From assembly GCA_964404765.1 (NCBI GenBank), contig CAYOLL010000002.1, forward strand, positions 6,604 through 70,603: 64,000 bases of DNA, given 5' to 3'. Below are positions 3,758 through 64,000 of the stretch, piece by piece. Made by a program: the position numbers and the translations under genes. The DNA comes from an uncultured Gemmatimonadota bacterium. Its GTDB lineage: Bacteria > 4572-55. Numbering within the stretch: the first letter of the stretch is position 1; each line of letters opens with the position of its first letter. The notes beneath the pieces are model-generated. The model saw only the letters and a program-made list of their open reading frames with translations, did no database searches and was not told the origin of the DNA.

Positions 3758-4825
3758 ATGGGTATGCTGAAAATTCCGCTAAAATTGCTCTACCAGGTTG
3801 CGCAAACCTATCAGTATAAAATTACGACCAAGCGTCTGCTCAATCTGGCCAAAGTCGGATCATCAATGGCGGTTTCGCGATTAACACGCACGCCGTACGT
3901 GTGGGGCTATCCGTGCCTGCTGATGGTTGAACCGACCAATATCTGCAACCTCAAATGCCCCATGTGCCCGTCCGGTAATGGCGAAATGACCCGCACCCGC
4001 GGCAAAATGAACCTCGCCAATTATCGCAGTGTGCTGGACGAACTGGGCGATTATCTGGCGCTGATCCTCTTTTGGAATCAGGGCGAGCCTTTTATCAACA
4101 GCGCGTTTCCGGAAATGATTACCTACGCCAAAAGCAAGGGCATCCCGACCATGACCAGCACCAACGGGCACTACATCCGCACCGACGCCGAAGCGGACGC
4201 CGTGATTCAGTCCGGTTTGGATGAGATTATTGTCTCGCTGGACGGCGCCAATCAGGCTGCCTACGAGCAATATCGGATTGGCGGCAGCTTTCCAAAGGTG
4301 ATGAAAAGCCTTGAGTTGCTGATCGAACGCAAGAAGGCGTTGAATTCGCCCCGCCCGCTCATCACCTTGCAGTTTATTGTCTTTAAGCACAATCAGCAGC
4401 AAATTGATGAAGTGAAGGCGATTGGCAAACGGCTCAACGTGGATCGGATTTCGCTCAAGACGGCGCAGATCTATACTGAAGTCCAGGCCGAGACTTTTTT
4501 GCCGGATGACGAGCAATACCGCCGCTACCGCAAGACCGATCAGGGCCATGAAATGAAGCTAAAGCCGCAAAACTGGTGCAAGGTGATTTGGCACAGCGCT
4601 GTGCTAAATTGGGACGGTCTGGTTGCCCCCTGCTGCTTTGATAAAAACGGCGAGTATGCCTATGGTAACGCTTTTAAGGACGGCAAGAATTTTCGCGAGC
4701 TTTGGACCGGCAGCGAGATTACGGCATTTCGGCAACAAATCCTGACGAACCGCAGCGCCATGCCCATGTGCGGCAACTGCTTTGAAGGCATGACGCAATC
4801 GTACGCGCAGTATATTGAAGTTTAA
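3758..4825 (+). CDS. Radical SAM enzyme with a C-terminal SPASM-type auxiliary-cluster domain
   Basis: CxxxCxxC motif 'CNLKCPMC'. C-terminal Cys-rich segment 'CKVIWHSAVLNWDGLVAPCCFD...MPMCGNCFEG' is typical of SPASM/twitch domains. Confidence 0.8.
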   Translation: MGMLKIPLKLLYQVAQTYQYKITTKRLLNLAKVGSSMAVSRLTRTPYVWGYPCLLMVEPTNICNLKCPMCPSGNGEMTRTRGKMNLANYRSVLDELGDYLALILFWNQGEPFINSAFPEMITYAKSKGIPTMTSTNGHYIRTDAEADAVIQSGLDEIIVSLDGANQAAYEQYRIGGSFPKVMKSLELLIERKKALNSPRPLITLQFIVFKHNQQQIDEVKAIGKRLNVDRISLKTAQIYTEVQAETFLPDDEQYRRYRKTDQGHEMKLKPQNWCKVIWHSAVLNWDGLVAPCCFDKNGEYAYGNAFKDGKNFRELWTGSEITAFRQQILTNRSAMPMCGNCFEGMTQSYAQYIEV

Positions 4826-30891: not shown

Positions 30892-31040
30892 AAATAAGTT
30901 TGGGTTTTGGAGTAAATGCGCCGGATGTGTGACCCTAAGGGTTTTGCTTTTTAACCCTTAGGGTCTCTGGCCTCCTCGGAACACACCCTAAGGGTTGAAG
31001 AGCAAAACCCTTAGGGTGAACTTACCCAAAGTTATTAAAT
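30892..31040. repeat. Family-1 MITE-like element, copy 2
   Basis: aaataagtttgggt ... acccaaagttattaaat, with the same four CCCTAAGGG/CCCTTAGGG palindromes. It is more than 85% identical to 6594-6743. Confidence 0.7.
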
Positions 31041-31165
31041 GGATGGTAAATATTTTCGAGAAGTTTTGTCATTTCAAATTCACGGGTGCGGTTACGGCGA
31101 AGAAATTACGGCGCTAAAAGAGAAAAATATCCGCGACGTTAGACCTCTTCACTTTATAAGGATCG

Positions 31166-31630
31166 GTGATGACAGAAATAATCACGGTACGCTCAGTCGT
31201 TCAAGATGATTTTCCCGCATGGAAAATATTATGGGATGGATATAATGCCTTCTATGGTCGCAAGGGTAAAACGGCGTTACCCCTAGAAACAACTAATGTA
31301 ACCTGGTCTCGCTTTTTTGACACTTATGAGCCAATGTATGCGCTTGTTGCTGTCAGTTCGGGTGAAATTGTAGGTCTGGCGCATTACCTCTTTCATCGTA
31401 GCACAATAAGTATTAACTCCACTTGTTATTTGCAAGATTTATTCACAAGCGAAACGGCGCGTGGAAAAGGAGTTGGTCACGCACTGATTAAGGCTGTTTC
31501 TGAACGTGCTAAAGCAGGTGGTTCAGCGCGTCTCTATTGGCAAACACATGAAACAAATGTGACTGCAATGCAACTATATGATAAAGTTGCTGAAAAATCA
31601 GGGTTTATAGTTTACCGAAAGGCAATTTAA
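31166..31630 (+). CDS. GNAT-family N-acetyltransferase
   Basis: 'ARGKGVGHALIKAV' is the acetyl-CoA-binding motif (R/Q-x-x-G-x-G/A). 154 aa. Confidence 0.8.
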   Translation: MMTEIITVRSVVQDDFPAWKILWDGYNAFYGRKGKTALPLETTNVTWSRFFDTYEPMYALVAVSSGEIVGLAHYLFHRSTISINSTCYLQDLFTSETARGKGVGHALIKAVSERAKAGGSARLYWQTHETNVTAMQLYDKVAEKSGFIVYRKAI

Positions 31631-31790
31631 CCGAGGAGAGTGAAGGGGAATATCCGTTTGAAATCTCTGAAATCTCTATGAAGGCTGGATGCTGATTGAA
31701 AAATCTTGACTTTCCATTAGCAAATATCGAAATTAGATCTTGTAGCTCACGAAGTTGCAAGGTCTAATTCTTTTTCGGAGGTAATAAACC

Positions 31791-32681
31791 ATGAACGAAA
31801 AACGAACATTGGTCAGCTTTGATTGGGCGATCAAAAATATTCTGCAGGATAAAGCCAATTATGATGTGCTGGAAGGCTTTCTCAGCACGCTTTTGGAAAA
31901 AGACATCAAAATCCTTTCTATTATGGAAAGCGAGAGTAATCAAGAACATCAATCCGATAAATTTAATCGGGTGGATTTGGTTGTAGAAGATGAACACGGC
32001 GAAATCTTGATCATTGAAGTGCAAAATGATCGAGAAATCCATTACCTGGAGCGGCTTTTATATGGCAGTTCCAAAACGATTGTGGAACGTATAGAATCGG
32101 GAGAATCATACGAAAATGTGAAAAAGGTTATCTCGATCAACATTCTGTATTTTCTGTTGGGCGATGGCGAGACCGATTATATCTATAGGGGCAAGACTGA
32201 TTTTTATGGATTCAATGATCATAAAAAGCTGGAGTTCCGGCATCGCAAAAAGGATGCGGTTTTAGGCAATGGCATTAAGACGAGTCAGAGCATTTTTCCG
32301 GAATATTATCTGATCGAAGTAGAACGTTTTCATAATCAAATCCGAAAGGACATTGACGAGTGGGTGTATTTCTTTAAGAATTCGGAAATCAAGCCGGAAT
32401 TTAAATCCAAAAATATCCAAAAAGCCAAAGAAAAACTGGATTTGCTAAAGATGACGCCGGAGCAGCGCAAGGCTTATGAGCGGTATAAAGAAAATCGCCG
32501 AAGTGAAAAGGAAGCTATTGATACAGCTAAAGAAGAAGGCCGTGAGGAAAGAGATGTGGAAATCGTTCGTGCATCCTTGAAGGAAGGCTTATCAATTGAG
32601 CAAATTTCTCGAATCACCCATTTAACGATTGCGCAAATAAACAGTATATCGGCGGAAGTCCTCAATTATCGCACGATCTGA
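31791..32681 (+). CDS. Rpn-family recombination-promoting nuclease / putative transposase (PD-(D/E)xK, PDDEXK_2)
   Basis: 'FDWAIKNIL...DKFNRVDLVVEDEHGEILIIEVQNDRE' is the D...E.Q core of YhgA/Rpn-like nucleases. The C-terminal helix is 'LSIEQISRITHLTIAQINSI'. Confidence 0.7.
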   Translation: MNEKRTLVSFDWAIKNILQDKANYDVLEGFLSTLLEKDIKILSIMESESNQEHQSDKFNRVDLVVEDEHGEILIIEVQNDREIHYLERLLYGSSKTIVERIESGESYENVKKVISINILYFLLGDGETDYIYRGKTDFYGFNDHKKLEFRHRKKDAVLGNGIKTSQSIFPEYYLIEVERFHNQIRKDIDEWVYFFKNSEIKPEFKSKNIQKAKEKLDLLKMTPEQRKAYERYKENRRSEKEAIDTAKEEGREERDVEIVRASLKEGLSIEQISRITHLTIAQINSISAEVLNYRTI

Positions 32682-32772
32682 AATTGCCGCTTGACTTTTC
32701 GCGTTAAGTTTTTGATATTAGACCTTGTGACGAATGTTGCAAGGTCTAATTCTTTTGAGGAGATACGAAACA

Positions 32773-32880
32773 ATGAAACATGCTGCCCCATTAAGATATG
32801 ATGTCATCTTCAAAAAGGCATTTGACCGCCGAAAGTCTTTACGCTCCAAAACGTATCGACCTCGAATATTTCAAAGCTAA
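32773..32880 (+). pseudogene. Decayed second copy of an Rpn-family gene (35-codon remnant, then frameshifted)
   Basis: 'MKHAAPLRYDVIFKKAFDRRKS...' is a typical Rpn N-terminus, then stops. It is preceded by the same hairpin-plus-leader ttgcaaggtctaattctttt as the intact copy. Confidence 0.45.
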
Positions 32881-33054
32881 AGCAGGCAAGCATGGTTATC
32901 AAGCGCTGATTAGCGACATTTTGCCACAGAGGCGTTAAAGCCGAAAAAATTCCGAAGTCTCAAGTCTGGGATAATAACGGTTTCTCAAAAAATATTTTAA
33001 AATAAATCCTTATGTATTTACTCATTTAAACTCGTCACATCACGGAGGATCAAC

Positions 33055-34344
33055 ATGCGAAATGTTTTGGCAATTATTCTGGGCGGCGGTCGCGGCACCC
33101 GGCTTTATCCGTTAACAATGCACCGCGCTAAACCGGCAGTTCCTTTGGCCGGCAAATACCGTCTGATCGATATTCCTTTAAGCAACTGCATTAATTCCAA
33201 CATCCAGCGCATTTTTGTCTTAACCCAATTCAACTCGGCTTCACTGAATCGTCACATTGGGACAACTTTTCGATTTTCCAACTTCTCGACCGGTTTTGTG
33301 GAGGTGTTGGCCGCGCAGCAGACTATCGAAAATCCATATTGGTTTCAAGGCACAGCCGATGCCGTGCGCCAGCACCTGCGCGAAATAGCGCACCATAACG
33401 CCACCGAGCACCTGATTTTGGCCGGCGATCATCTGTATCGCATGGATTATTCACAATTTGTGCAGCACCATCGTGACACCAACGCCGACATTACCATTGC
33501 CGTGCGGCCGATGGATGAGGCTAATGCTTCCAGCTTCGGCATCATGAAGATTGACGACCGCGGGCGAATTGTGGCCTTTAAAGAAAAGCCGGAAGGTGAA
33601 GAACTCCGTCAAATGCAAGTGGACACACGTGTCCTCGGCCTTGATGAGGCGAGCGCTCAGCTGTCGCCTTATATTGCGTCCATGGGAATTTATGTCTTCA
33701 AGCCAAAAGTCTTGATCGACTTGTTGACTACAACGCCACAACATACGGATTTTGGCAAAGAAATTCTGCCCGGGGCGATTGAGAATTTAAACGTGCAAGC
33801 CTATATGTTTAATGGCTATTGGGAAGACATCGGCACAGTGGAATCCTTCTACAAATCCAACCTGGCGTTGATTAAGCAGCCCAACCCGCCGTTTAGTTTT
33901 TATGACGCCAAAGCGCCGATTTATACGCGTCCGCTGTTTTTACCGCCAAATAAAATTCAGGATTGCCATATTACAGAATCCATGATTAGCGAAGGTTGCA
34001 TTATCAAGGATGCCAAGATTAATGGCTCAATTATCGGCGTGCGTTCGCGCATCGAATCCGGCGCAATTATCGACTGCTCGATGCTGATGGGCGCCGACCA
34101 TTATCAATCACTCGAAGAGCGCGAAGCCGACATTGCCGCCGGCATTCCCCCTATTGGTATCGGCAAAGGTTCGGAGATTCGCAAGGCCATCATCGACAAA
34201 AATACGCGTATTGGCCAAAACGTAAAGATCATCAACAAAGACAACAAGCAGGAAGATCGCCAGGAAAAATACGGCTACTGCATTAGCGGCGGCATTGTCC
34301 TGACGGTTAAAGGCGCCACAATTCCTGATAATACTGTGATTTAG
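33055..34344 (+). CDS. glgC: Glucose-1-phosphate adenylyltransferase
   Basis: '[61 protein letters not shown]' is the canonical GlgC N-terminus. The C-terminal left-handed beta-helix region is present. Confidence 0.9.
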
Positions 34345-40238: not shown

Positions 40239-42506
40239 TTATTTCATCAAAATCATCGACTTACGGGCGGTAAAACCGTCCGCAGTTTGTAGCTCATAAA
40301 AATATAATCCGCTGGCGACAACCGTATCCGAATTGCTCCGCCCGTCCCAGTAGATTTCCTGCCAACCGGCAGGTCGTTGCTCATCCAAGAGCGTCCTGAC
40401 CCATCGGCCACTAGCATCATAAATTTGCAGCTTGACATGACCGCTGTTCTGCAGCGCAAAACTAAGCATCGTTGCAGGATTAAAGGGATTCGGATAATTT
40501 TGTCCCAGCGCGTTGAAGCGAGCATCTGTACCAGGTTCAACGGCCACCGGTTGCTCGATGACGACCGGCAGATACGGACTCCAGAGGCTGGGTTGAAATT
40601 CGGCGTCACGACCGCGCGCCTGATAGTAATAATGCCCGTTCGGACGGTCTGGAGTTGAATAGGATGATGCGATCAAATTTTTGGCTATAATTTCGTCACG
40701 CTCGAATTGCATGACAGGTTTGATATCATCAAAATAAAATCCTTCACCTTCTACGCGGTCATCCGTCACATAACGAAACCGGATAAATAGCGCTTGACCC
40801 GCGTACGCCGACAGATCAAAATCGCCCTCAATCCAGCCGTCGGAAGCGCCGGTGATGCCGTGTCCCAAATTTTTGCGGTTTGGATCCTGTGTGGTGGTGA
40901 TATTGCCCGGAATGTTCGTAAAGTTAAGCCCGTCCGTGGAAATTGAGACATAAGCATAATCATACGCGCTTTCGGTTTCATACCAGGTTTTAAAGGTCAG
41001 ATGGGCTCCGGCTTCAACAAAAATCGGGCGAATGGCTGTTAAACGGGAATCCGCCCGTGACGAGCGGCCGGAGTAGTAACTTTTTTGGTTGCTAAAGGCC
41101 CGCGCGAGGGATGGCACAAAACCTTGATAAAGCCAGGGTATGTTACCTTCCGCACTGTCTGTAATTTGTTGGGCGTTGTACAGTTCCCGAACTTCATAGC
41201 TCACGGCCGGATTGGCCGGATCGGGACGCGGGGTCGTCCAGGACAGGTGAAAGCGGTTCCAACTGTCAAAGATGGCTTCCGGCCGGTCAGGTTGGCCGGG
41301 TGGATCGACGCCGCCCGGATTGCTGGAAAATAGCGCGGCTTTGATGTTAATGGGACGCGTGTCGGCTAATAATTGCGGGATGGCCGATTCTGACGGTAAA
41401 AATTCCGTGCCGACTTCCGGTGTAAATGACAGAATTTTGTTTTTGGTGATTTGATCGCCATAAAACCAATCATCCGAGTCGCCGTTAGTCTCATAAATGG
41501 TTCCGGAGGTCACATTGCCCTGCACGTAGCCGTTTTCAGCGACAAAAGCCTGGCCCAATTTGACAAAAGTTGCATGATCGGGGGTGTTTTGGGCGGCATA
41601 GCCCCAGGGATATAAGACCAGACGGCCATAGCTGTGATAGTTGATAGCAATGACAAATTTTCGATTTCGGGCAAAGTTCCGGATGGCCTGGTTTTCCGGC
41701 TCGGAAAATGCCGCAGGCCCGCGGTAGGTTTCCGCGGACATATTCGGATTGGAACCGACGTTGTTATAGCCCCAATTGTAGCCGTAATTCCGATTCAAAT
41801 CAACGCCATCGTATTGAAGATCAAAGATACCGCTGGCATTATTATCGCGAACATTTTTGCGCCAATAGTTGTAGGTGGTTGCCACGACATTATGACCGTC
41901 CGGGTTCAGCATGGGCACAACCCACACTTCCCGTTGATTTACAATAAAGGCCGACGTGTCGTTGACGGCATAGTTTTCCGTCAAAAATTTGATGAAATCC
42001 AAAGGGATTTCCGCCGTAATAATCTCCCGGCTGTGGTGGACGCCGATAATTAGCAGCTCCGGCTCATCCTCGTCCACAGCGGCGTTGTCGGATATTTTCA
42101 TGGCCCAGATGTCGCGATTTTGCCAGGTTTTGCCGATACTTTGCAGCAGGGTGATGTCCGGGAATGCCGTATGAATGGCCCGCAGTTCATCTTCTACTTC
42201 CTGAAAAGTATGATACTGACCCAGATCGCCGCGTTGGCTGACAGCACGGCTTATATAAGCGTCCATGTCGCTTTGCCGGATTTCCATAGACCAATCGGCC
42301 AGCTCCCGCCGGCCCAACTGCTCAGTCGGCACAAAGTAATCCCCATAATCATGAGGCAGACGGCACATCGCCGATTCGTAACCCAGCGCTTGCAAGTCAT
42401 CCGGCTGATGGCTCGCGTCAAAGTAGAAACGTACCAACGCTGTTTCTGCGTTCAAAAGCTGCGCCGAAAACAAAATGCTTATGGCAATCATCGTTTTTAA
42501 TTTCAT
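40239..42506 (-). CDS. Secreted M14-family zinc carboxypeptidase with a T9SS C-terminal sorting domain
   Basis: Signal peptide. M14 zinc motif context 'IGVHHSREIIT' and '...NPDGHN'. C-terminus 'GQNYPNPFNPATMLSFALQNSGHVKLQIYDASGRWVRTL...GLYFYELQTADGFTARKSMILMK' is the T9SS CTD. Confidence 0.8.
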   Translation of the reverse strand: MKLKTMIAISILFSAQLLNAETALVRFYFDASHQPDDLQALGYESAMCRLPHDYGDYFVPTEQLGRRELADWSMEIRQSDMDAYISRAVSQRGDLGQYHTFQEVEDELRAIHTAFPDITLLQSIGKTWQNRDIWAMKISDNAAVDEDEPELLIIGVHHSREIITAEIPLDFIKFLTENYAVNDTSAFIVNQREVWVVPMLNPDGHNVVATTYNYWRKNVRDNNASGIFDLQYDGVDLNRNYGYNWGYNNVGSNPNMSAETYRGPAAFSEPENQAIRNFARNRKFVIAINYHSYGRLVLYPWGYAAQNTPDHATFVKLGQAFVAENGYVQGNVTSGTIYETNGDSDDWFYGDQITKNKILSFTPEVGTEFLPSESAIPQLLADTRPINIKAALFSSNPGGVDPPGQPDRPEAIFDSWNRFHLSWTTPRPDPANPAVSYEVRELYNAQQITDSAEGNIPWLYQGFVPSLARAFSNQKSYYSGRSSRADSRLTAIRPIFVEAGAHLTFKTWYETESAYDYAYVSISTDGLNFTNIPGNITTTQDPNRKNLGHGITGASDGWIEGDFDLSAYAGQALFIRFRYVTDDRVEGEGFYFDDIKPVMQFERDEIIAKNLIASSYSTPDRPNGHYYYQARGRDAEFQPSLWSPYLPVVIEQPVAVEPGTDARFNALGQNYPNPFNPATMLSFALQNSGHVKLQIYDASGRWVRTLLDEQRPAGWQEIYWDGRSNSDTVVASGLYFYELQTADGFTARKSMILMK

Positions 42507-53228: not shown

Positions 53229-55910
53229 CTATACCAACGGCGGATACGGCTTCTCCCCATCCACGCCCAACTCCGCCATTGCCGCGGCGGCGGCGGAACG
53301 CTCCATTTTCCCTTGCGCGGCCAATGTCGACAGGGTAGCGGCCACAATATGCTTGGCGTCCACCTCAAAAAAGTCGCGCAGAGCCTCGCGGGTTTCGCTG
53401 CGGCCAAAGCCGTCGGTGCCCAGCGAAGTCAGCGGGGCGGGCAGCCACTTGGCGATCATATCCGGCAAGGCTTTGACATAGTCGGATGCGGCGACGTACA
53501 CGCCGTCAACACCGGACAGCGTCTTTTGCAGCCAGGATTGGCGCGCCGGCTGATCGGGATGGAGCAAATTCCAGCGCTCGGTTTCGTCGGCATTGCGATA
53601 GAGTTCCTTGTAGCTGGTCACGCTCCAGACGGTCGCCGCTACGCCGTATTTTTCTTCCAGAATTTGCTGGGCCTTCAACACTTCGTTCATAATGGCGCCG
53701 CTGCCGAACAAGTTGGCTTTTGGTCCGTTTGGACGAACGGACTCTCTGTATTTATACAGGCCGCGCAGTACGCCTTCTTCGCAGCCTTTGAGCGCAGTTG
53801 GCTGCACATAATCTTCATTCATCACCGTAATATAATAGAAGATGTTTTCCTGCTTCTCAAACATGCGATAAATGCCATCGCGGATAATCAGCGTCAGTTC
53901 AAAGCCGAAGGCGGGATCGTAGCATAGCATGTTCGGCACGGGATGGCCGAGCAAGTGGCTGTGGCCGTCTTCGTGCTGCAGGCCTTCGCCGTTCAACGTC
54001 GTGCGGCCGGACGTGCCGCCCAGCAAAAAGCCACGGGCGCAGCAATCGCCGGCGGCCCAAACCAAATCGCCAATGCGCTGTAAACCAAACATGGAGTAGA
54101 AGATATAGAACGGCATCATGCTGATCCCGTATGTCGAATAGGCCGTGCCTGCGGCAATAAATGATGACAGCGAGCCGGCTTCGGTAATGCCTTCTTCCAA
54201 AATCTGGCCGTCGGTGGCTTCTTTGTAATAGAGCAAGGTATCGGCGTCCACCGGCTCGTAGGTCTGGCCGACGTGCGAGTAAATGCCGCATTGCCGGAAC
54301 AGCGATTCCATACCAAAGGTGCGGGCTTCGTCGGGCACAATCGGCACGATAAACTTGCCGAGTTCTTTGTCCTTCAACAACTTGGCCAAAATCCGCACAA
54401 AAACCATAGTGGTGGAGACTTCGCGGTTGCCGCTGCCGTCCAAAAACTCCTGGAAGACTTCGATTGGCGGTGTTTTGTGCGGTTCGGCAATCGCAATACG
54501 ACTTGGCACATAACCGCCCAGTTGCTTGCGGCGTTCGCGGATATATTGAATTTCCGGACTGTTATCTGCCGGCTTATAAAAAGGTGCGGCGGCAATCTGT
54601 TCATCAGAGATTGGAATGCTGAAGCGGGTGCGGAACTCGCGCATTTCATCTTCGTTCAGCTTCTTTTGTTGATGGGTGATGTTTTTGCCTTCGCCGGCTT
54701 CGCCCATGCCGTAGCCTTTGATGGTGCGGGCCAGGATAACAGTGGGGCTGCCGACGTTGTCGATGGCCGCTTTGTAAGCAGCGTACACTTTTTCGGGATC
54801 GTGTCCGCCGTAACGCAGCTTGCGCAGTTGTGAATCGGACAGATGCTCGACCAGTTTGAGCAAGCGCGGGTCGGCGCCAAAAAAGTGCTTGCGAATAAAA
54901 TCGCCGTCCGACACAATGTATTTTTGAAACCAGCCGTCAACCAATTCTTCCATACGCTTGACCAGTAAACCGCCATCTTCTTTTTCCAGAATTTCGTCCC
55001 AATCATCGCCCCACAAGACTTTAATGACATTCCAGCCGGAGCCGCGGAAGGTAGCTTCCAACTCCTGAATAATCTTGCCGTTACCGCGCACAGGGCCGTC
55101 CAGACGCTGCAAGTTGCAGTTGATGACAAAGACGAGGTTGTCCAATTTCTCACGCGAGGCTAAGCCAATGGAACCCAATGCCTCAGGCTCATCCGTTTCG
55201 CCGTCACCCAGGTAAGCAAAAACTTTTTCGCCATTTTTTTGCTTCAGACCGCGATCTTCCAGGTAGCGCATAAAACGGGCCTGATATATTGCCTGCAACG
55301 GCCCAAGACCCATTGACACGGTTGGAAATTGCCAAAAATTCGGCATCAGCCAGGGATGCGGATAGGATGACAAACCACCACCTTCCGCCAGTTCGCGCCG
55401 GAAATTGAGCAGTTGATGCTCGGTTATCCGGCCTTCCAAAAAGGCGCGGGCATATATGCCGGGTGAGGCATGGCCCTGAAAGTAGACCAGATCACCATGA
55501 TAGTTTTCGCTGCGACCGCGGAAAATATGGTTAAAAGCGACTTCGTAGAGCGTGGCCGCCGAGGCGTAGGTGGAGATATGGCCGCCGATACCAGGCGTGC
55601 GTTTGTTACCGCCCACGACCATGGCCATGGCGTTCCAGCGCAGGATGCTTTTAATCCGGCGTTCGGTTTCGCGATTGCCGGGGAATGACGGTTGCTTATT
55701 CCGCGGAATTGTATTAATAAACGGCGTGTTGGCTGTAAAGGGAATTTCTACGCCGGCTTGTCGGGCATGGATATTCAGATCACGCAGCAAAGTGTTGACG
55801 CGCTCTGGCCCTTTATAGGACAACACATAGTCCAGCGAGTCCAGCCACTCGCGGGTTTCCAATTCTTCTTCGTTGGTAATGTCCTGATAATCGCGTGGGG
55901 TGTCGTTCAT
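53229..55910 (-). CDS. aceE: Pyruvate dehydrogenase E1 component, homodimeric type
   Basis: About 890 aa. 'GGHISTYASAATLYEVAFNHIFRG' and 'DGETDEPE' regions are canonical AceE. The start was taken at MNDTPRDYQD (55910), and the ORF-track start 55979 adds 23 aa. Confidence 0.9.
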   Translation of the reverse strand: MNDTPRDYQDITNEEELETREWLDSLDYVLSYKGPERVNTLLRDLNIHARQAGVEIPFTANTPFINTIPRNKQPSFPGNRETERRIKSILRWNAMAMVVGGNKRTPGIGGHISTYASAATLYEVAFNHIFRGRSENYHGDLVYFQGHASPGIYARAFLEGRITEHQLLNFRRELAEGGGLSSYPHPWLMPNFWQFPTVSMGLGPLQAIYQARFMRYLEDRGLKQKNGEKVFAYLGDGETDEPEALGSIGLASREKLDNLVFVINCNLQRLDGPVRGNGKIIQELEATFRGSGWNVIKVLWGDDWDEILEKEDGGLLVKRMEELVDGWFQKYIVSDGDFIRKHFFGADPRLLKLVEHLSDSQLRKLRYGGHDPEKVYAAYKAAIDNVGSPTVILARTIKGYGMGEAGEGKNITHQQKKLNEDEMREFRTRFSIPISDEQIAAAPFYKPADNSPEIQYIRERRKQLGGYVPSRIAIAEPHKTPPIEVFQEFLDGSGNREVSTTMVFVRILAKLLKDKELGKFIVPIVPDEARTFGMESLFRQCGIYSHVGQTYEPVDADTLLYYKEATDGQILEEGITEAGSLSSFIAAGTAYSTYGISMMPFYIFYSMFGLQRIGDLVWAAGDCCARGFLLGGTSGRTTLNGEGLQHEDGHSHLLGHPVPNMLCYDPAFGFELTLIIRDGIYRMFEKQENIFYYITVMNEDYVQPTALKGCEEGVLRGLYKYRESVRPNGPKANLFGSGAIMNEVLKAQQILEEKYGVAATVWSVTSYKELYRNADETERWNLLHPDQPARQSWLQKTLSGVDGVYVAASDYVKALPDMIAKWLPAPLTSLGTDGFGRSETREALRDFFEVDAKHIVAATLSTLAAQGKMERSAAAAAMAELGVDGEKPYPPLV

Positions 55911-56037
55911 AGCCTTCATCCTTTTCGGTAATGAGTGAGGAAATAACATTGCGCGTGAAGCAAGCGTAATTCTCAGCACATCTTAAGTAAGAATAATACG
56001 CGGCACGCTCGTTCACGTCCGATTATGTATGTTGAAA

Positions 56038-59000
56038 TTATTGCAGTAGCTTTTCCAGAGCCGCATTAACTTCCGCGGCTTGCTTCCGGGTCAGACGCTC
56101 CAGTTTTAAAATTTGGCTTATCTCGTGCCGGATACGTTGTTGATGCTCGGTGTAGGCGGCGCAAACCTGCCGGGTATGTGCTTCCGTTTGCGGGACGGGC
56201 ACCGGCCCGATTACGTGGCGCAACAGTACGATTTTCAAATACTCCGCTTCGCCGGCGGATTCACATTCCAGCCGATGGCCGTTGATGACCAAAACGGCTT
56301 TGTCAAAAAAGTATTCTATGCGCGGCGTTTCAATTTCGCGAATGTCCGGCAGGATGCGGGTTTTGACCGGCCAATCGGCATGAATAAAATCATCCGGAAA
56401 ACGGCGGCGCGGCTCGATTTTTTCCAGCTCGCTTAAAACATGGGCCGCAAAGGTGTCGGCGTTGAAATTTTCGACCCGTTTGCTTTTCTTGGACGTGACC
56501 GATTGCGGCTTGACATGCACCCGCTCGTAAACCAGGCGGCAAACTTCCCAATAGATTTCTTTGCATTCTTGCTCAGTCAAACCCAAGGCGTCGAAAATGA
56601 CATCGTCCAATTGTTTACGATCCGGCAACGGCTGTGGATCGGGCAAGGGTTTGGTTTTGTCGGCAAAGGCGGCTTTGGGCAGGCCGCATTCATGAAAGAT
56701 AGACTCTATTGGGCGCTTTGACAACTTTCTGATGGCTGATTTGAGCGTCTTTATTTGGTCGTTGCTAAATGCTTTGGGATTGGGGATCATAAGTTTGGCA
56801 ACTTCGTATGCCTCTGCTTTGAGTAAACCGCCACCAAAATTCACGCGACCTAATGAATTGAAGATGAGTTGAAAAACCGAACTGTTCGTCAACGCCAATA
56901 GCACACTAGAATCCGACTTGGCGTGTATTTCGTAAAAATTATTACTAAAGTATAATCCACCAGGCGTATAGTAAAAACGTACTATTTCATTGATTGCAAA
57001 ATTGCAGTTTATTTTTGCCGCTTTTCTTTTGCCAAGATCATACCACTTTTTTCTTGCGCTGCATGTTGGGCGCAAATGAAGATTTCTTGCTTCGCCCTCT
57101 TCAATGTATCGCAGAATATTTAACCCGAGTAATTCTTCTTTCGTTTTATGGCACATCAACAATTTATATTTCAACTCGGCTGGATAGATTAAAAGCAGAC
57201 TGCTTTCACGGGCATTTTTCACTGCCGGAACAAGAAACTCGTCTTCAATACCCCATGCCTTGGCGACGTCATCAGCAAGAAAGAAAAAATCATTATCACC
57301 GGTCTTGATCCCAAATCGCACATTTGCAACTGACCCAAGCGGTACCAACAAGTCCTTTTTTCCGGCTATTTCCAAAACTTTAAAGTAAATATCCGGCGCT
57401 CGCAGATATTTACTCCCCCATTTGCTGCCAGCGTAAGTCTGACCATGCATTCCTTCCTCGTACAATTTCTTTTGCTGAACCAGCACAACGCGAATCTGGT
57501 CATCCTCATAGAAAGAATGGCGCTGTTCGATCCGTTGTATCAACCGATCCACATCCTGCCAGCGCAGATCGTCTTCTTTATGGGGCGGGCAGTTTGGAAT
57601 CAAATCCTCAAAACGTGTCTTTAGGCTCACAAACCTGACGGTATTTTCATCACGCTCTTTTTGGTCGCGGCAGCGTTCGATAATTGTAATCACGCTATTG
57701 ACATCGGCGGCGGCAAAATCCCGTTCCGCAGGCGAAGCGATAATGGCAATGATTTTAAAATGTTGACACAGATAATGTTGCAACGACGCGCCATAACGCA
57801 CATCCAGCCAGCTATTGGATGTAATGTAGCCCAGTCGTCCGCCTTCTTTTAAAAAAGCGGCGCTGTGCAGAAAGAAGTAAACATAGATATCGGCCTGCTT
57901 GTTGATGGCCGTATTGACGCCCCATTCCATATTCAGGGTCGCGGCTAATTTTTCCTTATCGTCAATCAATTCCTGCCGGATGTAGGGCGGGTTGCCGACC
58001 GTGGCGTCAAATTCGGGAATAGCGACTTCGACGGTATCCTTGCCGGAAATATCTTCGAAGCGATACTTGATGCCGGTATGCTTGCGAACCTGAAAGAATC
58101 CGTTTTTGGGCATGATGTCAAAAGCGTCGCAATTTTGGATATAGGGAAAATTCTCTTTTTCGGATAGGTCAAGCATAGCCAAGTTCATCATGGCCAGATG
58201 GGACGGGAATTTGGCAATATCACAGCCCCAAAGTTGTTCTAACAATTGCTTATGCGAGCAGCTTTGACCAGCCAGATATTTTAAACGCGAATAACTGCGG
58301 ACTAAAAACGTTCCCGCCCCGCAGCTCCAATCCGAAATAATGGCCTCCGCTTTGGTGACGCAAAAACCGACAATCAAATCCACCCGATTAGCCGGCGTGA
58401 AGTATTGGCCCATTTCATGCCGGTCAGTTTCAGGAATCAGGCTCTCATAGACTCGGCCCAGAATCTCATAATTCAGGCCGGCAAAGTTGTAATTGTTCAG
58501 GTCTTTGATAAAGCGGGTCAGTTGCTCCACCGCATCGTCGGGGATACGCGCTTCGTCAAACACGGTCGCGGCGAAGATCGGCTGGTAGTCAATTTGCTTG
58601 ACCTTGTCAAAGTGCTGATTCAAATCGTGCTGAAGCTGCCGCCCGGTTTTGACGTTGACCGCAATGGGACCCAGTACATCCGGATAGTGGTTGCGGACGA
58701 CGTTATAAAAGACGACCTTGTTGATGATCTGAAACACGGCCAGTCGGGCGATTTTGAAGTAAAATTCGTAGGACACATGCTCCGAACCTATCCGGTTTTC
58801 GATGGCGCTGTTCCAGCCTTGGGCGCTCACCCATCTCACCAGCTTTGCGTAGAAACCTTTGTCGGTTTCGCTCGTAATTTTGAGCGCCGAGGCAAATACC
58901 GGCGTATTGATGTCCACCAAAAAAAGCAGCTTGTAGACAAAAAAATCATCAATGGGTACGCCAATAAAACGCGCCGGCTCGCTCAGGATATGATGAAATG

Positions 59001-59466
59001 TCGTAAGGAATTTTTCTAAAAAACTACGGATTTTGGCCCAATTTTCCTCGTTATCCAGCCGATCCAGGTCGTTGTCCGGTAACAGGACGATATTGCGCCA
59101 GATCATCTTTTGGCGCTGCATCAGCGGCACATTGGATTCGTGGGTTTTCCATAGAATAAAGTCGCGCACGTTCCAGGTGGCAAAGTAATCCACGGCCAGC
59201 GCATTGGCTTTCATCAGCGCGTTGTTGACGGTTTCCAGATCCGTGGCGTCATATTTGGGCTGCTTGGTCTCGAAGGAAAGCGCAAACTTTTGCCGTTGTT
59301 TATCCGCCCACAGCAAGCCGTCCAGAAACACGCTTTGCCCGCCGACTTTAAGCGAATGTTCGGCCTCGGCCTCTTCAAAAGATTGAAATAGTTCCGGCGC
59401 TCCGCGGATGATGGAATTCATCATCTCTATAATTTTATAGCGGAAAGTATGTTCGGTGAGTTTCAT
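56038..59466 (-). CDS. Fused PD-(D/E)xK nuclease / N6-adenine DNA methyltransferase / target-recognition-domain protein (Type IIG/IIL-like restriction-modification enzyme, MmeI-like architecture); an orphan BREX PglX-like methyltransferase is the alternative
   Basis: N-terminal 'FLDGLLWAD...ALSFETKQ' is a D...ExK motif. Helical spacer 'YEILGRVYESLI'. Methyltransferase motif X/I 'MGQYFTP...DWSCGAGTFL'. Motif IV 'VGNPPYIRQ'. TRD-type motif 'RFGIKTGDNDFFFL'. 1142 aa. No separate methyltransferase, S or R genes are adjacent. Confidence 0.65.
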   Translation of the reverse strand: MKLTEHTFRYKIIEMMNSIIRGAPELFQSFEEAEAEHSLKVGGQSVFLDGLLWADKQRQKFALSFETKQPKYDATDLETVNNALMKANALAVDYFATWNVRDFILWKTHESNVPLMQRQKMIWRNIVLLPDNDLDRLDNEENWAKIRSFLEKFLTTFHHILSEPARFIGVPIDDFFVYKLLFLVDINTPVFASALKITSETDKGFYAKLVRWVSAQGWNSAIENRIGSEHVSYEFYFKIARLAVFQIINKVVFYNVVRNHYPDVLGPIAVNVKTGRQLQHDLNQHFDKVKQIDYQPIFAATVFDEARIPDDAVEQLTRFIKDLNNYNFAGLNYEILGRVYESLIPETDRHEMGQYFTPANRVDLIVGFCVTKAEAIISDWSCGAGTFLVRSYSRLKYLAGQSCSHKQLLEQLWGCDIAKFPSHLAMMNLAMLDLSEKENFPYIQNCDAFDIMPKNGFFQVRKHTGIKYRFEDISGKDTVEVAIPEFDATVGNPPYIRQELIDDKEKLAATLNMEWGVNTAINKQADIYVYFFLHSAAFLKEGGRLGYITSNSWLDVRYGASLQHYLCQHFKIIAIIASPAERDFAAADVNSVITIIERCRDQKERDENTVRFVSLKTRFEDLIPNCPPHKEDDLRWQDVDRLIQRIEQRHSFYEDDQIRVVLVQQKKLYEEGMHGQTYAGSKWGSKYLRAPDIYFKVLEIAGKKDLLVPLGSVANVRFGIKTGDNDFFFLADDVAKAWGIEDEFLVPAVKNARESSLLLIYPAELKYKLLMCHKTKEELLGLNILRYIEEGEARNLHLRPTCSARKKWYDLGKRKAAKINCNFAINEIVRFYYTPGGLYFSNNFYEIHAKSDSSVLLALTNSSVFQLIFNSLGRVNFGGGLLKAEAYEVAKLMIPNPKAFSNDQIKTLKSAIRKLSKRPIESIFHECGLPKAAFADKTKPLPDPQPLPDRKQLDDVIFDALGLTEQECKEIYWEVCRLVYERVHVKPQSVTSKKSKRVENFNADTFAAHVLSELEKIEPRRRFPDDFIHADWPVKTRILPDIREIETPRIEYFFDKAVLVINGHRLECESAGEAEYLKIVLLRHVIGPVPVPQTEAHTRQVCAAYTEHQQRIRHEISQILKLERLTRKQAAEVNAALEKLLQ

Positions 59467-59736: not shown

Positions 59737-62700
59737 TTATTGAAGATCAATCAACGCAACAACATCCTGAATATCCACCATACCGTCGTCGTTAATATCG
59801 AACACCGCTTCATATTCCCAATCTTCCAGAATGGCGTCGGTCAGGATGCCGATATCGTCCGCGTCAATTTCGCCGTTGCCGTTGATGTCGCCCGTCATGA
59901 GCCCGTCCAGTGTTTGAAAAGACGCTTCGGCCAGACACACTTGCGTCTCTTTAAGATCGGTGACGCACAGTTGGTAAAAGTAGGTTTGATCAGGCATCAA
60001 GTTATGCAAGTTACCAATATGCGAAGTCGCCGGCGTTGTTAGCTCAGCCGCCATTGGATAAATGCCGCTCTGCATGCCATAATGAATTATAGCTGTGGTC
60101 AGCTTGTCCGTTGAAAAAGAGATTCTCGCGGTGGTTGCGGTGATATTGGAAACCGCTACATTGCTGACTACCGGGGCGGGTTCGTCGTTATCTTCAATGG
60201 TCAATTCAAATTGGGCAGGCGTACCAAGCTTGGCGCTGTTACCACCGGATAGATTTTGGAGTGAAAAAGTAATCGCCTCCACATTTTCGATGGTGCTATC
60301 ATCGGTGATATTCAAAGATACCGTTTGTAGTATCGCGCCACCCGCGGCAAAAGTTAGCCTTTTCGTGCTGAAGTTCCCCACATCCTCAGCCGATCCGGCA
60401 GTTAAGGCCACATCAATTTGGGTTGGGCCGCTAATGGATGGCGCGGTTATCAGTACTTCCAGGGTGTAACTGCCATCGCCCTCTTTAACCGTGGCATTGG
60501 CCGCGGCAAATTGCACGGTTGTGCGATCCAAAATCGTGAGTTGAAATTGCGCTTGCGTACCGATTTTGGCATTACTGCCGCCGGTGACATTCTGCAAGGT
60601 GAAAGTCAGGGATTCGCTGACTTCGGCCAGGGCATCTTCGGTGATCGTCAACGTCACGGTTTGCGTAGCGGCGCTGCCGGCGGGAAAGGTTAGGGTTTGT
60701 GTCGCAAAGTTGTTCACATCCGCCGCCGTTCCGGATGTCAGGGCAAGCTGCACGGTGGTGGCGCTGCCGGAAGCCGGGGCCGTCACGCTCACGCTCAATT
60801 GATAGCTGCCGCCTTCGATGACCGTGGCATTGGCCGCGGCAAACTGCACCGTCGTGCGATCCAAAATCGTCAGTTGAAATTGCGCTTGCGTACCGATTTT
60901 GGCATTGCTGCCGCCGGTGACATTTTGCAAGGTGAAGGTCAAGATTTCGCTGACTTCGGCCAGGGCATCTTCGGTGACCGTCAGCGTCACGGTTTGCGTG
61001 GCGGCGCTGCCGGCGGGAAAGGTCAGCGTTTGTGTCGCAAAGTTGTTCACATCCGCCGCAGTTCCGGATGTCAGGGCAAGCTGCACGGTGGTGGCGCTGC
61101 CGGAAGCCGGGGCGGTCACGCTCACCACTAATTGATAGCTGCCGCCTTCGATGACCGTGGCATTGGCCGCGGCAAACTGCACCGTCGTGCGATCCAAAAT
61201 CGTCAGTTGAAATTGCGCTTGCGTACCGATTTTGGCATTGCTGCCGCCGGTGACATTTTGCAAGGTGAAGGTCAAGATTTCGCTGACTTCGGCCAGGGCA
61301 TCTTCGGTGACCGTCAGCGTCACGGTTTGCGTGGCGGCGCTGCCGGCGGGAAAGGTCAGCGTTTGTGTCGCAAAGTTGTTCACATCCGCCGCAGTTCCGG
61401 ATGTCAGGGCAAGCTGCACGGTGGTGGCGCTGCCGGAAGCCGGGGCGGTCACGCTCACCGCTAATTGATAGCTGCCGCCTTCGATGACGGTGGCATTGGC
61501 CGCGGCAAACTGCACGGTCGTGCGATCCAAAATCGTGAGTTGAAATTGAGTGCGGACGCCCAACACCGGCGTATTGCCACCGGAAACATTCTGCAAGGTA
61601 AAAGTCAACGTTTCGTTGCTCTCGCTGACATTATCATCCGTCACGGTGATTAAGACCTTTTGGGCAGTAGCGCTGCCGGCCGGAAAAGTCACCGTCTGGG
61701 TCGCGTAATTATTGATATCTGCCGCAGTTCCGCCGGTTAAAGCAACTTGTACGGTTGTGGCTTGCGCGCCCGGATTAATCAGGCTTATTTCAAGTTCGTA
61801 GGTATTGCCTTCGATTACCGTCGCCGTCGCGGTGGCGAACTGCACTTCCGTGCTCGGCGGGGCATTGCTCCAGATTCGGTTGACCCATTCCGGGTGGTCG
61901 ATAAAGGGGTTGCGGTTGTGCTGAAGTTCGGCCACCCGCTCGTTGCGACGCATTTCCAGGGCATCGACCGGGTCGGCCTGATGCCAGGCCAGCAGAGTGG
62001 ATACGACCCCCAATTTGTTGGTGATATTATTCGGATCATGGTTTGTATCAATCAATTCCAGATTGTACGGGTCCTTGCCGCCGCTGCCTTCGTAACGCGC
62101 GTCCATATAAAAAATCATGCGTGCTACGTTGCCTTTATCCTGTGGACGTGGTTCAAACGAGTTGGCGTCGGCAAAGCAGCCGGTGGCAAAGCCGTCGCTA
62201 TCGCTATAGGGCGTACCGCCGTTATCAAAATCCATGCTGCCGCGCTTACTGTTGACCGTTACATCCGCCGGCCGTAAATGATGCAAATCAATATAGCCAG
62301 GCTCTTTATCATCAATGCCGATGCCATTGGGCCACACGTGTTCGCGGTTCCAGTTATCTGCACCCGTACCTTGTAGTGATTTGGCGCGGGATCGTCCGTC
62401 ATAAATCAAAATAACATTGTTGGGATTAGCGGGATCTTCGTCCGCATATTTGAGGCCGTCCCAGACTCCGTCATAGTTTGTGACGGCGTCTTCAAAATAG
62501 GTATCACGCAGCAAAGCATTCAAAATGCTTTTTAACTCCGGGCCGGTTTGATTGTTGATACCGGCATAGTAATCGCCGCTGCCGAAGGTGCGGGCATTGG
62601 CGGTGATGCCTGCGGAATAGGTGTCGCTATTTTTTGACCAAATCTTATAATAGTATAGGGTGGCTTCATTCCGACCGGTATGATTAAAATCGGCCAGACT

Positions 62701-64000
62701 GCCGACAGCCAGCACCGTAGCGGTACCGATGGGTTGGCCGGCTGTGTATGATCCGCTCGGTGTGCCAAAACTATTACTGGTATTAAACGCCAGCAGAATC
62801 TGATCATTAGCCACGTTGCGTGTCCAGACCAGATGAATTTCCGAAGCGCCGGTCGGGGTGGCGGTAAAATTGGTCGGATCAATCACGCCGCTTGAGCTTT
62901 TGATGGCGACTTCATCGACCTGCCAATTTCGGGCGGCGTTGGAGCCTGTGCCGCTGGACTGATAGTGAAACGCCAGCGCGACCTGTGAACTGGAGGCAAA
63001 AGCGGCTAAGCTGATGTCGCCGGAACTCGTCCAGGTTTGGTCCTGCGTCGGGTTCAGGAAATTGAGCGTTGTCCAGGAAGCGGATGCCGGATTGCCACCG
63101 ACAGTATAGTTAGTAGAAATCTTAAGCGCTAACCCGTTGATGGTATCGGTAAAGCGCACCCACTCCCAAAATTCCAGCACGGGATTGGTATAGCCGGTCA
63201 AATTAATGGTCGGGATCAAGAGCCAATCTTCGCTGGCAACATCGCCGCCAAAACCGCTGCAGGCCATGTAGCTGCCGCTGCCGTTGGCTCCGCCGCCCGT
63301 TGTGGCAATCGTCCAGTTGCGGTTGCTGGCCACGTTGTAAGTGTCCCAACTCCCGGAAGCGGATTCAAAGCTTTCCAGACCGGTAAAAGCCGGAATACCG
63401 GGCGTGACGGCGGAAGTTGTCGGGACGCTTCCGTCGGTTTTGTAGGCGATGTTGGCGCCGCTATTGGTATATGGGAAGATTTTAAAAGTGTAAGTGACCG
63501 TGGGACTCAGGTTTTCAAAAAAGAAAGATTGGACGCCGGGGTTGACATTGACAGCGGCGCTGCCGTCACCTAATTGATTATCATTGGTCACAGCGACGCC
63601 GTTCGTAGGGTTAGAAATAGCGCCGGCGCCGGCATTGCTGGCTTTGATCAAATAACCGTCCGGCGCGGCGCGAGTGGCGTCCGTCCAAATCACCGTGATT
63701 CGTCGCGGACTATTGGCGGTGGCGGTAAAGCCGGAGACATGATTACTTGGCGCATTTTTGAGCGTCGTCGCGTTGGCGTTCACGCCGCTGGAATATGTAT
63801 TGCCGCTGTTGTATGACCAAGCTTTATAATGATAGGTTGTGTTTTCGGCCCGCCCGCTATGAAGAACGCTGGTGTTGCTGCCGGCTACTATCACCTGGCC
63901 GCCGCCGGAAATCGTCTGACCCAGTGTATAGCCGCCGGTGGGTGTGCCAAAAGTCTGGCTGGTATTAAAAGCCACCAGCACGCTGTTATTATCGTTGTTA
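59737..64000 (-). CDS. Giant secreted multidomain nuclease, 5'-partial (continues beyond the window). Domain order: repeated beta-rich modules, MAM/LTD-like domain, Endonuclease-I-family domain, five Calx-beta repeats, FN3 and a C-terminal dockerin
   Basis: Endonuclease I motifs 'NREHVWP', 'SKRGSMDF', 'ARMIFYMDARY', 'NRNPFIDHPEW'. Five ~111-aa Calx-beta-like repeats ('TTVQFAAANATVIEGGSYQL...TFTLQNVTGGSNAKIGTQAQFQLTILDR'). FN3 ('PAPVVSNVAVSNITATTARISF...'). Dockerin-type Ca-binding repeats 'DINGNGEIDADD...DINDDGMVDIQD' lie at the extreme C-terminus. The frame is open to base 64000. Confidence 0.75.
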   Translation of the reverse strand, partial: NNDNNSVLVAFNTSQTFGTPTGGYTLGQTISGGGQVIVAGSNTSVLHSGRAENTTYHYKAWSYNSGNTYSSGVNANATTLKNAPSNHVSGFTATANSPRRITVIWTDATRAAPDGYLIKASNAGAGAISNPTNGVAVTNDNQLGDGSAAVNVNPGVQSFFFENLSPTVTYTFKIFPYTNSGANIAYKTDGSVPTTSAVTPGIPAFTGLESFESASGSWDTYNVASNRNWTIATTGGGANGSGSYMACSGFGGDVASEDWLLIPTINLTGYTNPVLEFWEWVRFTDTINGLALKISTNYTVGGNPASASWTTLNFLNPTQDQTWTSSGDISLAAFASSSQVALAFHYQSSGTGSNAARNWQVDEVAIKSSSGVIDPTNFTATPTGASEIHLVWTRNVANDQILLAFNTSNSFGTPSGSYTAGQPIGTATVLAVGSLADFNHTGRNEATLYYYKIWSKNSDTYSAGITANARTFGSGDYYAGINNQTGPELKSILNALLRDTYFEDAVTNYDGVWDGLKYADEDPANPNNVILIYDGRSRAKSLQGTGADNWNREHVWPNGIGIDDKEPGYIDLHHLRPADVTVNSKRGSMDFDNGGTPYSDSDGFATGCFADANSFEPRPQDKGNVARMIFYMDARYEGSGGKDPYNLELIDTNHDPNNITNKLGVVSTLLAWHQADPVDALEMRRNERVAELQHNRNPFIDHPEWVNRIWSNAPPSTEVQFATATATVIEGNTYELEISLINPGAQATTVQVALTGGTAADINNYATQTVTFPAGSATAQKVLITVTDDNVSESNETLTFTLQNVSGGNTPVLGVRTQFQLTILDRTTVQFAAANATVIEGGSYQLAVSVTAPASGSATTVQLALTSGTAADVNNFATQTLTFPAGSAATQTVTLTVTEDALAEVSEILTFTLQNVTGGSNAKIGTQAQFQLTILDRTTVQFAAANATVIEGGSYQLVVSVTAPASGSATTVQLALTSGTAADVNNFATQTLTFPAGSAATQTVTLTVTEDALAEVSEILTFTLQNVTGGSNAKIGTQAQFQLTILDRTTVQFAAANATVIEGGSYQLSVSVTAPASGSATTVQLALTSGTAADVNNFATQTLTFPAGSAATQTVTLTITEDALAEVSESLTFTLQNVTGGSNAKIGTQAQFQLTILDRTTVQFAAANATVKEGDGSYTLEVLITAPSISGPTQIDVALTAGSAEDVGNFSTKRLTFAAGGAILQTVSLNITDDSTIENVEAITFSLQNLSGGNSAKLGTPAQFELTIEDNDEPAPVVSNVAVSNITATTARISFSTDKLTTAIIHYGMQSGIYPMAAELTTPATSHIGNLHNLMPDQTYFYQLCVTDLKETQVCLAEASFQTLDGLMTGDINGNGEIDADDIGILTDAILEDWEYEAVFDINDDGMVDIQDVVALIDLQ
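60480..61800. repeat. Tandem 333-bp coding repeats (four units, the central two nearly identical) encoding the Calx-beta modules
   Basis: For example, the 150-bp block gaccgtcagcgtcacggtttgcgtggcggcgctgccggcgggaaaggtcagcgtttgtgtcgc... recurs at 60980 and 61313. Period is 333 bp. Confidence 0.8.

Follow-up and report, generated by a model that had tools for sequence, protein, structure and literature searches.

Genes for Rpn nucleases are widespread, toxic to the cell and active against phages; they spread horizontally, and little is understood of how they are regulated. The proteins have been described as toxic DNA endonucleases with intragenic antitoxins (RpnL/RpnS in Escherichia coli) and a role in antiphage defence, and their genes as spreading horizontally without identifiable terminal repeats or target duplications, the arrays arising by tandem duplication (Zhong et al. 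2023, PMC10400941). Control elements that travel with a mobile gene are known from insertion sequences (IS). IS200 carries a terminator at its left end (nt 12–34, with a start at approximately nt 40) that guards against impinging transcription (PMC4513863), and a survey of "mobile attenuators" (Naville & Gautheret 2010, PMC2965389) describes conserved, recently spread terminators 5′ of transposase and IS-related genes, and states that leftovers of decayed elements can come to regulate cellular genes. Here, we analyse a 64-kb stretch of contig CAYOLL010000002.1 from an uncultured Gemmatimonadota bacterium (the window; all coordinates are window positions), in which an intact Rpn-family PD-(D/E)xK nuclease gene and a 35-codon remnant are each preceded by a copy of the same leader. 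With even confidence, we read this repeat of approximately 90 nt as a portable 5′ control region in which a terminator within the promoter would insulate the Rpn cassette from read-through; the start position, actual termination and the insulating purpose are what we infer from the sequence. The device, as we see it, is already known from insertion sequences and would leave the general picture unchanged, and the leader would be a concrete control element for one Rpn lineage.

The leader occurs twice in the window. The pattern TTAGAYCTTG-N(10-20)-CAAGGTCTAA matches at 31733–31767 and 32718–32749 only (no matches in 100 shuffles), the 17-mer CAAGGTCTAATTCTTTT has exactly two occurrences versus 0.22 expected, and neither sensitive blastn nor a covariance model finds a third copy in the 64 kb. 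By blastn the repeat units 31705–31795 and 32690–32777 share 75.5% identity over 94 columns (E = 3e-11), including a 21-nt core, GTTGCAAGGTCTAATTCTTTT, that is identical in both. The initial annotation of this DNA had located the shared leader correctly but called the copies identical, whereas they are similar only; its 9-bp stem extends to 17 and 15 bp when G–U pairs are counted, the second loop that it gave as 13 nt has 12, and the leader, said to end 12–15 nt before the ATG, has a Shine–Dalgarno (SD) sequence that ends 9–10 nt before each ATG. The parts of the two cassettes are as follows.

31705–31795, + strand: leader copy 1, from just 5′ of the −35 box to ATGAA (blastn against copy 2 and alignments).
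31706–31711, + strand: −35-like box TTGACT of cassette 1, read from the sequence.
31729–31734, + strand: predicted −10-like box GAAATT of cassette 1, 17 nt after the −35 box and overlapping the first hairpin bases.
31731–31769, + strand: hairpin 1, 17-bp stem including three G–U pairs, 5-nt loop, ΔG −19.4 kcal/mol for the stem-loop alone.
31768–31775, + strand: U-rich run TTCTTTTT, directly 3′ of hairpin 1.
31777–31781, + strand: SD sequence GGAGG of cassette 1, 9 nt 5′ of the ATG, read from the sequence.
31791–32681, + strand: intact Rpn-family PD-(D/E)xK nuclease gene, 296 aa (PF12784, 1e-26; TIGR01784, 3.6e-25).
32690–32777, + strand: leader copy 2, starting 8 nt past the rpn stop codon (blastn and alignment against copy 1).
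32691–32696, + strand: −35-like box TTGACT of cassette 2, from the promoter scan match TTGACT-17-GATATT.
32714–32719, + strand: −10-like box GATATT of cassette 2, overlapping the hairpin foot; the same GATATT is found in the homologous leaders L145 and L151 described below.
32717–32750, + strand: hairpin 2, 15-bp stem including two G–U pairs, 4-nt loop, ΔG −19.5 kcal/mol.
32750–32756, + strand: U-rich run TTCTTTT, 3′ of hairpin 2.
32757–32762, + strand: SD sequence GAGGAG of cassette 2, 10 nt 5′ of the ATG, read from the sequence.
32773–32880, + strand: 35-codon open reading frame (ORF), codons 1–17 (MKHAAPLRYDVIFKKAF) being a putative PDDEXK_2-type N-terminus and the remainder unrecognisable.

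On the reading that we favour, the cassette would measure approximately 985 bp, beginning at the −35 box and ending 8 nt after the stop codon, and its control region would consist, in order, of a sigma-70-type promoter (TTGACT, 17 nt, GAWATT), a 15–17-bp sense-strand hairpin that overlaps the −10 box, a U-run and the SD sequence. RNA coming from an upstream gene would carry both arms, fold the hairpin ahead of the U-run and terminate, so that the putative toxic nuclease gene would remain unexpressed by read-through. RNA from the cassette's own promoter would have its 5′ end within the 5′ arm; missing the outer part of the stem, it could not form the full hairpin and would read on into the gene. 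Two such cassettes would stand in tandem. The first is intact, and of the second there would remain the leader and 17 codons that can still be recognised, which belong to a different Rpn subtype. With a leader of this kind, a toxic nuclease gene could insert 3′ of any active gene and still not be turned on by transcription running in from it.

Outside the window, Rpn genes on three unrelated metagenome contigs, which come from three other assemblies, have a homologous leader; they are listed here with the identity of their Rpn protein to that of the window.

L144: protein identity 69%; TTGACA-N17-TATCAT; hairpin ATAGACCTTGCGAAT-TAAAT-ATTTGCGAGGTCTAT, then TTTTTT, ending 22 nt before the ATG.
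L145: protein identity 70%; TTGCTT-N17-GATATT; hairpin ATACCTTGTGAC-ACAT-GTTGCAAGGTAT, then TAACTTTTTT.
L151: protein identity 69%; TTGATT-N17-GATATT; 3′ arm CAAGGTCTAATTATTTT kept, 5′ arm decayed.

A covariance model of the leader (R1) scores these at 73.6, 69.2 and 25.8 bits, respectively; besides its training copies it found only L151, and nothing else scored comparably over 468 kb of Rpn loci. The initial annotation would have been refuted by a leader unlinked to other Rpn copies and a hairpin that is not conserved; instead, the leader recurs before these three genes and its hairpin shows compensatory changes, set out below.

Evidence for a promoter comes from seven homologous leaders, in which the homology begins at C/TTGAC, is interrupted by a 17-nt spacer whose sequence varies and returns with a −10-like hexamer. 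The −35 box reads TTGACW, TTGCTT or TTGATT, and the −10-like hexamers are GAAATT, GATATT (three times), TATCAT and TATTCT, their last bases being the first bases of the hairpin. Both boxes are kept in all seven, including the hairpin-less L143 and L148, and the 17-nt spacing is clear in six of them. Two conserved boxes that enclose a stretch of constant length but variable sequence are what marks a genuine promoter, and the transcription start is predicted approximately 7 nt past the −10 box, inside the 5′ arm.

The initial annotation had offered a terminator or an attenuator and had overlooked these boxes. As an attenuator in the gene's own 5′ untranslated region, the hairpin would lie 3′ of the start, mostly terminate transcription and permit read-through upon a signal, for example phage infection. 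Its position, ending 21–22 nt before the ATG in both copies, would suit that role, and Rpn expression is said to show additional unexplained regulation (PMC10400941); however, leader homology starts at the −35 box with nothing conserved 5′ of it, the sole conserved promoter puts the start inside the stem, and neither an alternative anti-terminator pairing nor an Rfam match is found. Since a conserved promoter overlaps the hairpin foot, an upstream insulator is more likely than an attenuator within the gene's own mRNA, and we regard the attenuator as rather improbable.

The likeness to an intrinsic terminator, which had been recognised from the hairpin and its U-run, holds up well. No other terminator-like structure in the window comes near the strength of hairpins 1 and 2, with the candidate tails CTTTTTCG and TCTTTTGA: the stems of all other candidates have at most 11 bp. 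Each of the two combines a stable stem-loop with an immediate U-run on the transcribed strand. Folded as sense-strand RNA, they reach −23 kcal/mol (z = −4.7) and −21 kcal/mol (z = −5.2), respectively, and a T-run lies 3′ of the hairpin in five of five homologous leaders. For copy 1 the minus strand reaches no more than −11.6 kcal/mol (z = −1.2), since the G–U pairs turn into A–C mismatches there. An Rfam 15 covariance scan of 31000–33500 returned a best E-value of 0.97 and nothing on the hairpins.

Conservation of the structure was assessed in an alignment of the four intact hairpins, in which 95% of cells form a standard pair, falling to 31–47% when the 3′ partner is slid by 1–3 columns. Compensatory changes are found at three pairs (G–C to U–A in L145, C–G to A–U in L144 and U–A to A–U in L144), and the one-sided changes at five further pairs are all G–U-compatible. 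This covariation supports conservation of the hairpin, although not conclusively. The wobble pairs are all specific to the sense strand, which favours an RNA hairpin, or a hairpin in top-strand single-stranded DNA, over a duplex DNA site.

That strand specificity matters for a rival reading in which the palindrome TAGACCTTG-N12/15-CAAGGTCTA at −10/+1 would be a duplex operator bound by a dimeric repressor, either the C-terminal helix–turn–helix (HTH) domain of Rpn or an RpnS-like antitoxin translated on its own, in the manner of toxin–antitoxin autoregulation. The pairing extends into the supposed spacer through G–U pairs that would be A–C mismatches on the other strand, and differences between the half-sites keep only G–U pairing (WIN1 column 10/34 and L144 column 13/31), even though the G–C to T–A change in both arms of L145 would fit co-evolving half-sites. 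The dyad does coincide in part with the −10 box and start site as predicted, database annotation gives homologues a PF27070 HTH_Rpn_C domain at the C-terminus, and RpnS is HTH-like and acts as an antitoxin (PMC10400941). Symmetric half-sites at a fixed spacing are nevertheless not what is found, as the spacing varies between 12 and 15 bp, and an operator gives no role to the conserved U-run. We consider it unlikely.

The genomic contexts of the leader allow a further comparison. In all three cases of known upstream context, a co-directional gene ends just 5′ of the hairpin, in favour of the insulator reading: the GNAT gene ends at 31630, rpn ends at 32681 and, on L144, an unrelated ORF ends at position 161, between the −35 and −10 boxes. 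In a further rival reading, the hairpin would be an ordinary 3′ terminator of the preceding unit that was duplicated along and has no specific relation to the Rpn gene downstream; each hairpin of the tandem array would also be the terminator of the gene before it. Stems of the same AGACCTTG/CAAGGTCT sequence with T-runs are, moreover, ordinary terminators in many viral (phage) contigs. Yet the hairpin holds a fixed position relative to the −35 box, −10 box, SD sequence and ATG in both window copies, L144, L145 and L151, the spacing from hairpin to SD sequence and ATG is the same in both window copies, L144 and L145, and the DNA upstream is unrelated in each case. The contigs of L145 and L151 also break exactly at the −35 box, two independent contigs ending at its TTG (L145:1 and L151:1). 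An ordinary 3′ terminator is, to our minds, quite unlikely.

The terminator-within-promoter reading has several points against it. Neither stem has a G+C-rich base beside the U-run, and the last 4–5 pairs before it are mostly A–U in all copies (AUUAG...CUAAU); an A–U-rich stem base at this place weakens intrinsic terminators. The observed values of pairing and covariation are reached by 7 of 500 shuffles, and the covariation comes from only four intact hairpins of probably related lineages. The hairpin is dispensable, given that it is absent from L143 and L148, in which the CTTGACTTTTTTC promoter region and the ribosome site remain, and that it has decayed in L151. It is a feature of a lineage and not of the family, since a survey of 82 loci with 84 Rpn gene starts, from Electrothrix, Spirochaetota, Bacteroidota and others, shows no equivalent hairpin. 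Lastly, the predicted start is placed inside the 5′ arm solely by the usual spacing after a −10 box.

The leaders on L146, L147 and L150 are unrelated. A scan of Joint Genome Institute (JGI) metagenomes for the 20-mer TTGCAAGGTCTAATTCTTTT gave seven matches, which we take as chance because all lie inside coding sequence and have no 5′ arm. Scans of viral contigs gave only unrelated sequences or generic phage terminators and no Rpn relatives. Our search of the literature turned up no account of a conserved leader before PF12784/TIGR01784 genes.

Among described systems, IS10/Tn10 is one point of comparison: Davis, Simons and Kleckner reportedly showed in 1985 that fold-back inhibition protects it from outside activation. 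As in IS10, only transcripts initiated outside would hold both halves of the inhibitory structure here, with the element's own predicted start lying inside it. In IS10 the structure hides the ribosome-binding site, whereas here the SD sequence stands outside the stem and the structure is terminator-like. The likeness to IS200 is that of a hairpin terminator just 5′ of the start of a mobile, potentially harmful gene and travelling with that gene, and linkage of the terminator-like hairpin to the downstream gene across genomic contexts, as in IS200, is found for both window copies, L144 and L145. The differences are that the gene encodes a PD-(D/E)xK Rpn nuclease here and a Y1 transposase in IS200, that the hairpin here overlaps the −10 box with a predicted start inside the stem, that no defined element ends are seen here, and that the U-run is found on one strand only while the IS200 terminator is bidirectional. 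Like the mobile attenuators, the locus has a conserved terminator-like structure directly 5′ of a multi-copy mobile gene and a leftover leader before a cellular gene, here glgC. That survey dealt with IS families of Enterobacteria and bacilli, and Rpn/PDDEXK_2 is not among the families described in the portions consulted (PMC2965389).

The intact gene at 31791–32681 had been called an Rpn-family gene, and both profiles confirm this above their curated cut-offs: PF12784 (PDDEXK_2) scores 94.4 bits (cut-off 27.4) and TIGR01784 89.3 bits (cut-off 52.1), covering residues 10–286. In the translation, D11 (SFDWA), D62 (RVDLV), and E76 and Q78 (IIEVQ) match the predicted active-site residues of RpnA, a correspondence judged by eye and not by structural alignment; those of RpnA are D11, D63, E82 and Q84 (PMC5350276). 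The family is very large, a protein search giving 7,485 matches. The N-terminus of the subfamily is almost invariant (RTLVSFDWAIKNILRDKANYDVLEGFL, RTLVSFDWAIKNIL), and close homologues (P0001–P0016) are near-identical to approximately residue 240, after which they have hypervariable tails with EGxE/KGIE-like four-residue repeats and an HTH-like end, much like the RpnS antitoxin region reported for E. coli. Ten of these, P0002–P0011 (74–86% identical), are probably paralogues in the same genome, and the best Rpn relative among 185,579 species genomes is 63% identical and belongs to Electrothrix. Met221 (LLKMTPEQRKAYERY, window position 32451) is conserved in 15 of 15 sequences compared and could be an internal start, but there is no SD sequence 5′ of it. 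The Rpn block (31550–33050) has 37–40% GC versus 45–55% in the flanking trmB, GNAT-upstream and glgC regions, consistent with acquired DNA.

Compared with E. coli Rpn, the protein belongs to the same superfamily, with D11 and the D/E-x-Q residues present, appears to have the hypervariable C-terminal tail with four-residue repeats and an HTH-like end, and shares the horizontal spread and the tandem arrays by duplication. It differs in its profile family, PF04754 in E. coli and PF12784 here, and the paper on the E. coli proteins describes no conserved 5′ hairpin leader (PMC10400941).

The second leader precedes an ORF (32773–32880) that the initial annotation had taken for a decayed copy of the neighbouring gene. 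The ORF exists and its first 17 residues are PDDEXK_2-like, but it is not a duplicate of its neighbour. It is undetected by Pfam, NCBIfam, tblastn with 120 homologues, two large protein databases and plasmid tblastn, the database searches returning one spurious repeat protein only, and past codon 17 nothing is recognisable. To score the N-terminus, the 17 residues of the remnant were grafted in place of the first 18 of the intact protein and the result was rescored against PF12784. The graft scores 85.2 bits, versus 76.3 for the protein without an N-terminus and 82.7 with the native one, a gain of +8.9 versus +6.4 bits, and its match reaches profile position 2. Thirteen shuffled grafts score 75.8–80.3 bits (−0.5 to +4.0) and none reaches the remnant's score. 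In 1.09 Mb searched in six frames, the N-terminal regular expression D-x-x-[FI]-K finds 40 Rpn starts, one unrelated site and the remnant ORF. The putative Rpn nature of the ORF is thus carried by its first 17 residues only.

Descent of the remnant from gene 1 by duplication and decay was rejected because the DNA similarity ends at the start codon: identity between gene 1 and the remnant is 77% in the leader and 61% over the initial 105 coding nucleotides. The tandem Rpn copies of other genomes show the opposite, their coding sequences being more alike than their upstream sequences. The remnant's N-terminus, LRYDVIFKKAF, also differs from the RTLVSFDWAIKNIL of the subfamily, and with both differences the earlier account of tandem insertion followed by degeneration of the same gene is not supported. 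Neither is the remnant an internally deleted copy of gene 1, because the DNA that follows it showed no similarity to the body or the 3′ end of rpn. We conclude from these comparisons that it is a probable stub of a second Rpn-family cassette of a different subtype.

Arrays and stubs are found elsewhere in the family. L013 and L015 have four Rpn copies each at a spacing of 1.1–1.3 kb, L012 (3001–4150) has an intact Rpn gene followed by a 50-aa stub, and L149 (120–1229) has a leader with an 8-codon stub, then a full gene and, past a 36-nt spacer with a different hairpin (CCCCTCTTGAGAGGGG), the next copy. Many contigs with Rpn homologues are only 0.95–1.35 kb long. Together with the two contigs that end at the TTG of the −35 box, this suggests that the cassette of approximately 1 kb occurs as a multi-copy repeat at whose fixed left edge assemblies break.

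The initial annotation had also suggested that the hairpin is the terminal structure of a small mobile unit. In such a reading, single-stranded or cruciform DNA would be recognised at the hairpin, as at IS200/IS605 ends or integron attC sites, and drive insertion, array formation and truncation; the units would be mobile Rpn cassettes of approximately 1 kb with their left end at the −35 box and hairpin, and the Rpn nuclease or a host enzyme would cut and join the extruded hairpin. If true, this would account for the tandem arrays, the stubs of a leader with a few codons (32690–32880, L149 and L012) and the contig breaks at the −35 box, and Rpn genes would gain defined ends, contrary to the current view. 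The unit is compact (985 bp, with the next leader starting 8 nt past the stop codon), its left homology limit is the same in seven loci, two contigs break there, arrays and tiny remnants are frequent in the subfamily (L012, L013, L015 and L149), and many homologue contigs measure only 1.0–1.3 kb, as for collapsed repeats. A partner hairpin is missing 3′ of the gene in L144 and L145, however, and the hairpin itself is missing from L143 and L148, or decayed in L151; a search for direct repeats flanking the block, proposed at the outset, found no target-site duplication, and the attC core GTTRRRY has no match. The published comparison likewise has rpn genes without defined ends, in arrays formed by tandem duplication (PMC10400941). 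We hold both the recombination hairpin and the cutting and joining of cassettes to be very improbable, each to the same degree.

Two specific kinds of mobile unit were rejected. For an integron cassette, the arms (..TTGTGAC / GTTGCAA..) depart from the core RYYYAAC...GTTRRRY in having C, not a purine, as the fifth base; no integrase was seen among the neighbours scanned. For an IS200/IS605-type element, hairpins at both ends are lacking in L144 and L145, the second hairpin of the window has its own promoter, SD sequence and ATG, and the unit has no HUH/Y1 transposase or TnpB, its sole gene being PF12784.

The orphan second leader (promoter, hairpin and SD sequence) and the stub (32690–33054) lie directly 5′ of glgC (33055–34344), and between rpn and glgC no terminator-like structure other than hairpin 2 is found. 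Some transcription of glgC could come from the orphan promoter, in which case a decayed cassette would have donated a terminator and a promoter to a housekeeping gene.

Some distant Rpn genes (L048 at 2860–2920 and 3796–3858, L036 and L069) have unrelated long hairpins that end 11–27 nt before the ATG, that of L048 with a 17-bp stem and a second, bidirectional terminator 3′ of the gene; Rpn genes may have acquired a hairpin just 5′ of the ribosome site repeatedly and independently. Among neighbouring genes, a GNAT gene (31166–31630) adjoins the Rpn gene of the window, and on L151 (1313–3046) the Rpn gene with the decayed hairpin is followed by two small ORFs and by genes for a PIN-domain protein and a GNAT acetyltransferase, surroundings typical of toxin–antitoxin systems.

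Elsewhere in the window, approximately 23 kb from the Rpn block, a Type IIG restriction–modification enzyme-like gene (56038–59466, − strand; PADLOC REase_MTase_IIG, 3e-66; Pfam Eco57I and N6_Mtase) adjoins a gene (59737–63981, − strand) for a 1,413-aa protein with Endonuclease_1, Calx-beta and fn3 domains. The protein encoded at 40239–42506 has a type IX secretion system (T9SS) C-terminal sorting domain. For AceE (aceE, 53229–55979) the best relative is only 74% identical, the closest named ones being Ignavibacteria at approximately 70%, and the host appears to be a deep lineage of the Fibrobacteres–Chlorobi–Bacteroidetes (FCB) group.

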